Shown piece by piece: positions 34,227 to 34,455 of a stretch of 64,000 nt of DNA. The notes beneath the pieces are model-generated. The model had not been told where the DNA came from, ran no database searches, and worked only from the letters and a program-made list of their open reading frames with translations. Origin of the DNA: Candidatus Poribacteria bacterium (GTDB lineage Bacteria > Poribacteria > WGA-4E > JAJDTR01); the NCBI GenBank assembly GCA_965222225.1, contig CBDCTK010000002.1, positions 4,352,001 through 4,416,000 on the forward strand, read 5' to 3'. The translations under genes were made by a program, and so were the position numbers. Numbering within the stretch: the first letter of the stretch is position 1; the number at the start of each line of letters is the position of its first letter.

Positions 34227-34455
34227 GAGCCTGTTTGAATAATCGGTGGCAAAGCCATTTTTGGTCATTTGTAGGAAGTTTTTTCATGTTTTCATTGTTT
34301 GGCTGCTACATAACCTGTAGGATCTCTATCGCAGCCGCTATCCGTTCGTTTGATCCCCGCTGGGGCTTTTAGAGGCTGGTGCGCAGGGATCTCTATCGCA
34401 GTCATTATTCATTCCTTTGATCGCACCCTGCAAACTGTACTTTTCAAACAGGCGC
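34227..34455. mobile_element. MITE (same family as 29846..30055), TTA target duplication, carrying two micro-insertions
   Basis: TTA-GAGCCTGTTTGAA...TTCAAACAGGCGC-TTA. Confidence 0.8.

Follow-up and report, generated by a model that had tools for sequence, protein, structure and literature searches.

A 36- to 37-Nucleotide Structured Repeat of Candidatus Poribacteria, Probably a Very Small Mobile Element That Inserts into Other Repeats

Since the small dispersed repeats (SDRs) of cyanobacteria were described, how DNA units of a few dozen bases move has, to our knowledge, been an open question; such units are too short for double-stranded circles, for the binding of a transposase at two ends, or for target duplication. 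SDR4, SDR5, and SDR6 of Nostoc punctiforme, reportedly introduced by Elhai and coworkers in 2008 as "very small mobile repeated elements," are said to be 21–27 nt long. Elements of the IS200/IS605 group of insertion sequences (ISs) have two subterminal hairpins, exceed 100 nt, and are inserted beside a fixed word of 4–5 nt. Here we describe a repeated element of 36–37 nt from a Candidatus Poribacteria genome (G000, a 5.70-Mb assembly of two contigs, C1 and C2, with 49.8% G+C), as seen in a 64,000-nt stretch of contig C2 (positions 4352001–4416000; hereafter the window, whose numbering is used unless C1 or C2 is given) and in the genome at large. It is very probably a mobile insertion element, and the cyanobacterial SDRs, to go by this description, would seem to be its closest known kind. 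SDR5, according to those parts of Elhai (2015; PMC4390886) that deal with it, is inserted exactly after the third base, and before the fourth, of the octamer HIP1 (highly iterated palindrome). For repetitive extragenic palindromic (REP) sequences, the REP doublets known as REPINs, and the REP-associated tyrosine transposases (RAYTs, which are Y1 enzymes of the HUH class), our comparisons draw on portions of Bertels and Rainey (2011; PMC3116915) and Di Nocera et al. (2013; PMC3733652), the latter also supplying the definition of the GTAG tag of REPs. Among the 12 papers listed of the 31 that a full-text search of the literature matched, none gave a sign of treating dispersed repeats in Poribacteria; judged by titles and the opening of abstracts, they deal with sponge microbiomes or genomes.

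Two sister repeats of about 210–230 nt, at 29846–30055 and 34227–34455, can be aligned end to end, the second being longer by two blocks of about 36 nt, each of which stands in place of 2–3 nt of the first repeat. The first block (34319–34355) has CCTGT on its left and CCCGCTGGGG on its right, where the empty sister reads CCTGT-CG-CCCC. The second (34386–34422) has GGTGCGCAG on its left and GCACC on its right, where the empty sister reads GGTGCACAG-TG-CGCACC. No direct repeat of the kind produced by target duplication was found at the junctions of either block in 34227–34455. Alignment and junctions thus confirm what a preliminary description of this DNA had claimed, namely that one sister is filled and the other empty at two positions and that no target duplication accompanies the difference. 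That description called the unit a 35-mer; the unit is indeed discrete, but its length is 36–37 nt, its first two bases being variable and its final C ambiguous with the target (34745–34783 is an unchanged example copy). Within the window a 14-mer of the element has 10 matches (two mismatches or fewer) against 0.35 expected, a number that 0 of 100 shuffles reached, and nhmmer returned 17 matches at E ≤ 10, 15 of them on the plus strand.

A hidden Markov model built from eight window copies was used to search the genome with nhmmer and gave 1453 matches at E ≤ 10, 911 at E ≤ 0.01, and 645 at E ≤ 1e-4 (the "strong" copies). The 911 copies are distributed over the minus strand of C2 (508), the plus strand of C2 (400), and C1 (3). 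Among 540 full-length copies the information per position is high from position 1 to positions 37–39 and is at most 0.34 bits in either flank, a drop so sharp that the ends must be regarded as exact in hundreds of unrelated contexts. Indeed, hundreds of copies begin and end at exactly the same base, and 26 or more positions are invariant or nearly so, while the terminal inverted repeat amounts to only 6 bp (GGGATC/GATCCC). On a crude map of open reading frames (ORFs) that covers 80% of C2, 827 of the 908 chromosomal copies fall outside called ORFs, 34 of these overlapping an ORF end. Unique sequence surrounds 431 of the 908, and the other 477 are in repeated hosts. No Rfam family matched the window.

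Comparison of both 60-nt flanks of each copy against the genome revealed an empty paralogue, with contiguous flanks, for 479 of the 911 copies and another filled paralogue for only 61. A single main gap distinguishes filled from empty in 234 pairs, and in 105 of these the flanks are well matched. The net gain is 33–37 nt in 85 of the 105 pairs (mode 35 nt, 30 pairs); 0–4 nt of the target are replaced in 49, the rest being nested or noisy cases; and no target duplication was seen in any of the 105. Typical empty junctions are GGGGCAAG-ATG-CCCCGCC, GGTGCGCAG-TG-CGCACC, CCTGT-CG-CCCC, and GGCTGGT-G-CGCAG, and one junction, CTAT-CG-C, lies within the element itself. At five host positions the ratios of empty to filled sites are 19:13, 159:16, 169:7, 18:9, and 77:18, and the filled copies represent 5, 3, 6, 5, and 9 variants of the element, respectively, with 0 of 63 in the opposite orientation. 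Empties are thus the majority at every one of these host sites. Because empties predominate overall, because several variants occur per site, and because none of the 63 copies is reversed, the empty state is ancestral, and targeting is specific to site and strand: the same position has been hit repeatedly and in a strand-specific manner. The preliminary description had proposed that filled and empty alleles be aligned and had allowed that the filled state might prove ancestral. It did not, since empties are numerous at the host sites and 3–9 variants share a site. Its further claim, that insertion affects several unrelated repeat families, holds as well, empty paralogues having been found for more than half of the copies and the hosts including at least five unrelated families.

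These results must be weighed against the idea that there is no transposition at all and that one ancient insertion, or a few, spread through gene conversion or homologous recombination among copies of one host repeat and through the amplification of composite units of host plus insert. Composite units do amplify, as can be seen from variants tied to one site (the AG/AT variant accounts for 14 of the 16 filled GGTGCGCAG sites and the GC/AT variant for 7 of 18 GGCTGGT sites), from the correlation of variant identity with flank bases, and from the 61 copies with other filled paralogues. But 431 of 908 copies are in unique sequence, flanks are nearly free of information, a single host site can hold 3–9 variants, and the hosts comprise at least five unrelated families plus the element itself. 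Gene conversion among host repeats therefore explains part of the spread of composites and fails for the unique contexts and for the variants per site; as an account of the whole we consider it improbable.

How, then, does the element compare with SDRs? Both are highly iterated, intergenic, and far below the size of MITEs (miniature transposable elements that end in inverted repeats), both insert precisely into other repeats with no evident transposase, and for both the argument for mobility comes from filled and empty host repeats. The poribacterial element is well under 100 nt (36–37 nt), has 911 copies, of which 827 of 908 lie outside ORFs, and is present or absent in similar sequence without target duplication (479 of 911 copies with empty paralogues). 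It differs from SDRs in being found in Poribacteria, in being 36–37 nt rather than 21–27 nt, and in the lack of HIP1 enrichment; a cyanobacterial origin and a link to HIP1 were rejected, as the 117 HIP1 copies of the genome are at about the level of chance. Three further features, a compensatory hairpin on one strand, an orientation linked to replication, and the invasion of GTAG-tagged REPs, are shown below for the poribacterial element, and we make no claim as to their status in SDRs. MITEs, such as the host repeat of about 210 nt at 29846–30055, resemble the element in being nonautonomous, abundant, and intergenic, but the element lacks target duplication, has inverted ends of only 6 bp, and is one fifth of the usual size. 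Nor does it behave as a CRISPR repeat, its copies being solitary, nested, or in tandem without spacers rather than in regular arrays.

The interior of the element has a conserved core, CTATCGC-xx-TC-yy-TATYC-y'y'-TC-x'x'-TTGATC, in which xx and yy (and their primed partners) are variable dinucleotides and which is preceded by a short tail, (G/A)GGATCT. In 687 copies caught with a pattern that fixes the register, the x bases pair with x' and the y bases with y'; in 388 copies every one of the four pairs is Watson–Crick, against a mean of 16 and a maximum of 30 in shuffled sets. Eight of the 10 commonest x/x' types and six of the nine commonest y/y' types are fully complementary, and there are 34 fully paired x/y combinations and 281 distinct sequences. 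The cells that depart from Watson–Crick pairing are mostly A.C on the top strand (294), with 30 G.T on the top strand and 62 of other kinds. On the purine-rich bottom strand a top-strand A.C becomes a G.T wobble, and there the invariant TC/TC mismatch likewise reads as a tandem G.A/A.G. The wobble pattern argues that the purine-rich strand is the one whose fold is selected, and this strand is predicted to carry an interrupted hairpin in which a tandem G.A/A.G mismatch separates two stretches of 2 bp, the inner one closed by a loop of 5 nt. The same complementarity was present in the example copies inspected from a second genus (see below). A guide-like relation of the variable dinucleotides to the flanks was considered and rejected, the mutual information being distributed across every position of the flanks, a pattern to be expected from co-amplified composites.

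RNA motifs typically tolerate wobbles and contain tandem G.A, and the partial nhmmer matches include 416 of the 3' part as against 192 of the 5' part. Might the element therefore be a structured, purine-rich small RNA, with G.U wobbles and tandem G.A, that is inserted by reverse transcription at nicked or gapped hairpins? An artifact of classification accounts for most of the surplus of 3' partial matches, and 5' truncation was accordingly dismissed as a sign of reverse transcription: many of the "3' partial" matches are full copies with a diverged 5' tail, and chains in which a full copy is joined to a 3' part or to a 5' part are balanced (56 and 54, respectively). Nor is there a bias with respect to flanking genes (262 co-oriented versus 306 anti-oriented) or an Rfam family in the window, and no reverse transcriptase is linked to the element, none having been searched for. 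We give this RNA-mediated route little credence.

Where does the element insert? Recurrent targets are the loops of GTAG-tagged REP hairpins and the feet of MITE hairpins. In many cases the host is a hairpin with CTAC after it on the top strand of the element, that is, a GTAG-tagged REP on the opposite strand: CTAC occurs within 14 nt to the right of the element in 151 of 540 copies and GTAG to the left in 13. The tags in these 151 copies belong mostly to the host REP; CTAC lies 0–3 nt from the end of the element in only 37 copies. A perfect helix of at least 5 bp brackets 72 of the 645 strong copies (11.2%), as compared with 4.8% for random intergenic sites, 3.3% for displaced junctions, and 4.0% for mismatched flank pairs, and a hairpin begins at the right flank in 16.7% of copies versus 8.9% at random. 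When the 645 are sorted into exclusive classes, 72 lie in a loop, 134 are within 10 nt of another copy, 126 abut a hairpin at a flank, and 313 have none of these contexts; imperfect hairpins are undercounted here because the criteria demand perfect stems. The preliminary description had held that hairpin structure directs insertion. The recurrent REP loops and MITE hairpin feet accord with this, but it is no general rule, given the 313 of 645 copies with neither hairpin context nor neighboring copy. The enrichment in loops that it had asked for over random intergenic DNA is real, yet it concerns only 72 copies, and about half of the strong copies (313 of 645) show no simple hairpin context; 431 of the 908 chromosomal copies are in unique sequence.

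The element also inserts next to and into itself. A second match lies within 5 nt of 118 of the 645 copies, 117 of these being on the same strand, and of 317 nearest neighbors at 60 nt or less, 288 have the same orientation. Nesting is apparent from chains in which a full copy stands between a 5' part and a 3' part, and the balance between the two kinds of junction in such chains is as nesting predicts. At C2:1578200–1578800 a tandem array of five 38-nt element units without spacers, each ending in CCTAC, lies within a MITE copy, and its units differ solely at the paired variable positions.

Small target losses without duplication, together with links to hairpins and to the direction of replication, are what might be expected of a repair scar, in which hairpins cleaved during replication are patched from another locus by template switching. 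Patches of this kind would vary in length and content, however, yet across hundreds of copies the ends do not shift by a single base; the internal structure is under selection; and about half of the copies have no hairpin context. We therefore hold a repair scar to be highly improbable. Of the three mechanisms raised in the preliminary description, this one is a misfit for a unit with 26 or more invariant positions plus a selected secondary structure, and "parasite of REPs" is the one that fits best; a host mechanism that disables repeats, the third, is neither favored nor disfavored by the observations.

The orientation of the element follows local GC skew. Over ±50 kb the contingency table of element strand and skew is 271/129/153/355 (odds ratio 4.9, p = 5e-30), and concordance is similar for the 431 copies in unique context (70%) and the 477 in repeated hosts (68%). 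Empty REP and MITE hosts, oriented in the same way, show 71–80% concordance; that is, the element shares its orientation with the empty GTAG REPs that it invades. In bins of 100 kb, gene-strand bias and skew are correlated (rho 0.48), which is what a leading G-rich strand would produce; the strand bias of the element is correlated with skew as well (rho 0.52), whereas against gene-strand bias its rho is −0.03. Because orientation tracks skew without tracking gene direction, the link is to replication; an orientation linked to transcription was rejected on this correlation and on the counts of flanking genes given above. By the usual rule, the pyrimidine-rich top strand would be mostly on the lagging-strand template and the structured strand on the leading-strand template. 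GC skew changes sign more than 20 times along C2 (5.6 Mb), which lacks a simple two-replichore pattern; these many flips reflect either many inversions or assembly joins in the metagenome-assembled genome (MAG).

A search of 176 genomes of the phylum with the core pattern (at most one mismatch) found it in 21. All 10 genomes of the element's own genus have 525–1216 copies each, with the same spectrum of variants; all four genomes of one genus in another family have 184–204 each; and seven further genomes have a few each. Thus, as traced by this pattern, two poribacterial genera make up the range of the element. In three of the seven further genomes, fragmented MAGs from other genera, all copies sit on a few contigs (G057 C72, C83, C91, and C116; G125 C353; G146 C61 and C362), and these contigs are probably misbinned DNA of the element-bearing genus. 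Viral contigs gave no match to the core pattern.

Among eight congeners the orthologous intergenic regions differ almost wholly, each having its own copies elsewhere and in different hosts. In a search for orthologous empty sites, the intergenic DNA could not be aligned save in one congener, G005, at one locus, where the copy is shared. This copy, at 16927, is common to G000 and G005, in a spacer that is about 95% identical, and in G000 it has a base change that breaks one pair and a 1-nt insertion in the 3' half, which argues that copies decay after insertion. Intergenic DNA in the genus turns over fast. Closer strains were sought in the metagenome collection, in which the best match had 74% amino-acid identity. 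The genes are better preserved: the interval 30102–34212, with a melibiase (GH36) gene followed by a gene for an FG-GAP/ASPIC-UnbV protein, is 85–88% identical at the nucleotide level in nine congeners, with no match in G005 and with intergenic regions on either side that are not conserved.

The congeners bear on a further explanation, that the repeat is a functional motif selected by the host, for example a polar binding site for a protein of replication or chromosome organization, with empty sites arising by deletion. An orientation that follows replication at about 70%, 26 or more positions that are nearly invariant across ten species, and an intergenic location would all suit such a motif. 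Its sites are not conserved, however: from one congener to another the element sits at different places, and in different hosts, within orthologous intergenic DNA. Moreover, copies decay once in place, they pile up within one another, which a binding-site model does not need, and empties outnumber filled sites. On this evidence a host-selected motif has a low probability.

Our best overall reading, which on balance we believe, though only just, to be correct, is that of a very small, nonautonomous, strand-specific mobile element that moves as single-stranded DNA and resembles cyanobacterial SDRs and REPs. A unit that is short, strand specific, structured, and free of target duplication suggests movement as a single-stranded oligonucleotide, and from the properties of the element and the gene content of the genome we infer that a HUH Y1 (RAYT-like) enzyme may act in trans. 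Taken separately, we judge a single-stranded DNA intermediate to be an even proposition, and a Y1 enzyme as the mobilizer to be possible but doubtful. Under this proposal the element would move as a single-stranded oligonucleotide: a protein would read the hairpin, cut the element out, and, in the course of replication, rejoin it where REP or hairpin DNA is single stranded. The likeliest class of enzyme would be the HUH Y1 transposases of RAYT/IS200 type, provided in trans, and two close cuts in the target could account for the replaced bases.

Several observations weigh against this reading. Nearest-neighbor DNA folding of four copies, on both strands, was no better than for shuffles (z of −0.38 to +1.40), so that it is covariation, and not folding energy, that argues for the hairpin; therefore the fold needs either a protein or noncanonical G.A pairs that the folding parameters do not credit. 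No conserved target word was found at either flank of the 540 full-length copies (0.34 bits or less). The structured strand lies mostly on the C-rich strand, and in IS200/IS605 elements the structured strand is on the template strand opposite to that seen here. No filled and empty alleles of one locus were seen at the level of strains, congener intergenic DNA being too diverged. Finally, the searches of Y1 and multicopy transposase loci in G000 tied no enzyme to the element, as set out next.

Five matches to the Y1_Tnp family are present in G000, and three of the five loci are flanked by repeats, one of these genes being broken and one truncated. The best is a single-copy gene for a 157-aa protein (C2:3080255–3080728) with element-bearing host hairpins on both sides, and the truncated gene has inverted copies of the element on its flanks, so that two of the five loci have the element on both sides. 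The broken Y1_Tnp gene, at C2:3088937–3089269 (L013, 638–970), is interrupted by an in-frame TAG and has inverted GTAG REPs from the GGAGCGATC..TCGCGACTCC family on its two sides, a RAYT-like arrangement; the genome holds at least five distinct GTAG REP families. In other genomes, 29 loci with homologues of the truncated Y1 gene have no element within 1.5 kb. Of six Y1 loci that a family search found in other genomes, only two, in congeners, have copies of the element, the other four having none, and at these two other hairpins flank the gene and the arrangement of the element is not fixed and differs from that at the G000 locus. Y1_Tnp is present also in genera that lack the element. These findings count further against our reading, and across the loci covered no dedicated Y1 gene flanked by the element was found. 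The abundant IS families were rejected as well: the element is within 400 nt of only six of 47 copies of an IS1595-like transposase and seven of 22 copies of an IS4/5-like (DDE_Tnp_1/DDE_5) transposase. Example copies of the two families, C2:1118859–1119713 and C2:1115596–1116615, are about 2 kb apart.

In relation to REPs and REPINs, the element is similar in being an imperfect hairpin in the range of 20–40 nt, intergenic, with hundreds of copies and compensatory changes in its stem (388 of 687 versus about 16, though the folding energy is no better than for shuffles). In addition, G000 has RAYT-like single-copy Y1 genes flanked by hairpin repeats, and the element and GTAG REPs share a bias in strand with respect to replication. 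In contrast, the GTAG tag is outside the element unit (CTAC at 0–3 nt in only 37 copies), there are no inverted doublets of the REPIN kind (288 of 317 neighbors within 60 nt are on the same strand), and no Y1 gene is consistently flanked by the element. The element, moreover, inserts into REPs and is not itself one. With IS200/IS605 elements it shares the absence of target duplication, strand specificity, dependence on a hairpin, and an orientation tied to replication, but it has a single hairpin, as judged by covariation, a length of 36 nt, and no flank word (0.34 bits or less).

The copies in the window illustrate the range of contexts. The filled host at 34227–34455 and its empty sister at 29846–30055 (both plus strand) belong to a MITE-like family of about 210 nt, with terminal inverted repeats GAGCCTGTTTGAA.. 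and ..TTCAAACAGGC, CCCC..GGGG hairpins in its interior, and a GTAG-type REP at the end. This family has dozens of copies, in G000 and in all nine congeners; its internal hairpins also flank the single-copy Y1_Tnp gene at C2:3080255–3080728. On the plus strand, the copy at 34319–34357 (E = 4.8e-10) is at the foot of the MITE hairpin CCCC..GGGG, and that at 34386–34424 (E = 1.5e-9) is in the loop of a REP-like hairpin, GGTGCGC/GCGCACC, followed by a CTAC-type tag. The copy at 34745–34783 (E = 1.9e-9) occupies the loop of a REP, GGCGGGG..CCCCGCC-TAC, for which empty paralogues exist, and the copy at 50875–50913 (E = 1.9e-9) lies in the loop of the same REP family, between GGGGCAAG and CCCGCCTAC. 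At 62279–62316 (E = 1.7e-9) a copy stands in a MITE fragment, with CCTGT(GA) on its left and CCCTCCGGGG on its right; at 20773–20812 (E = 4e-6) a diverged copy follows GTCGCAATCGGGAG, the left arm plus loop of a REP family of the GGAGCGATC type; and at 14482–14517 (E = 5e-4) a copy with a diverged 5' end comes after a half-palindrome, AGAAACCGAG..AAAAAAGGC, and before CCACTCTGGGGCTT. All of the further placements named in the preliminary description (near 62279, 34746, 50876, 20772, and 14479) thus proved to be copies of the element.

Other plus-strand copies are that at 16927–16966, an nhmmer match in unique intergenic DNA, of which G005 has the ortholog; those at 26483–26520 (E = 6.6e-9) and, diverged, at 34601–34637 (E = 3.5e-4), each followed by a 3' fragment of a second copy; a diverged copy after GGTGGTG at 24183–24220 (E = 0.011); and a weak, diverged copy at 44270–44308 (E = 0.073) nested between fragments of other copies. 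The minus strand has a copy nested in another at 4896–4929 (E = 2.8e-6) and one at 63345–63383 (E = 4.6e-6).

If mobile, the element would rank with the smallest mobile DNAs yet seen and would be well suited to studies of how such elements move. The handles that it offers are exact ends, recurrent targets whose empty state is known, a hairpin that names the active strand, and an orientation linked to replication, and its range of only two genera makes a search for a partner gene feasible. More speculatively, in a version that we think rather unlikely to hold in full, it may be a minimal single-stranded DNA transposon: a folded 36-nt oligonucleotide whose hairpin, with its tandem G.A, is read by a protein and which is excised and then pasted at replication forks into sites where RAYT-type or other enzymes cleave REP and MITE hairpins. 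It would then count as a hyperparasite of REPs and as the smallest mobile DNA that is structured and has a definable substrate, and its paired variable dinucleotides would mark many coexisting lineages of replicators that predate the split of the ten species of the genus. For the Poribacteria, which are uncultured symbionts of sponges, the picture is of intergenic DNA that is rapidly remade as repeats insert into repeats, layer upon layer, and this layering matters for the assembly and binning of their genomes.
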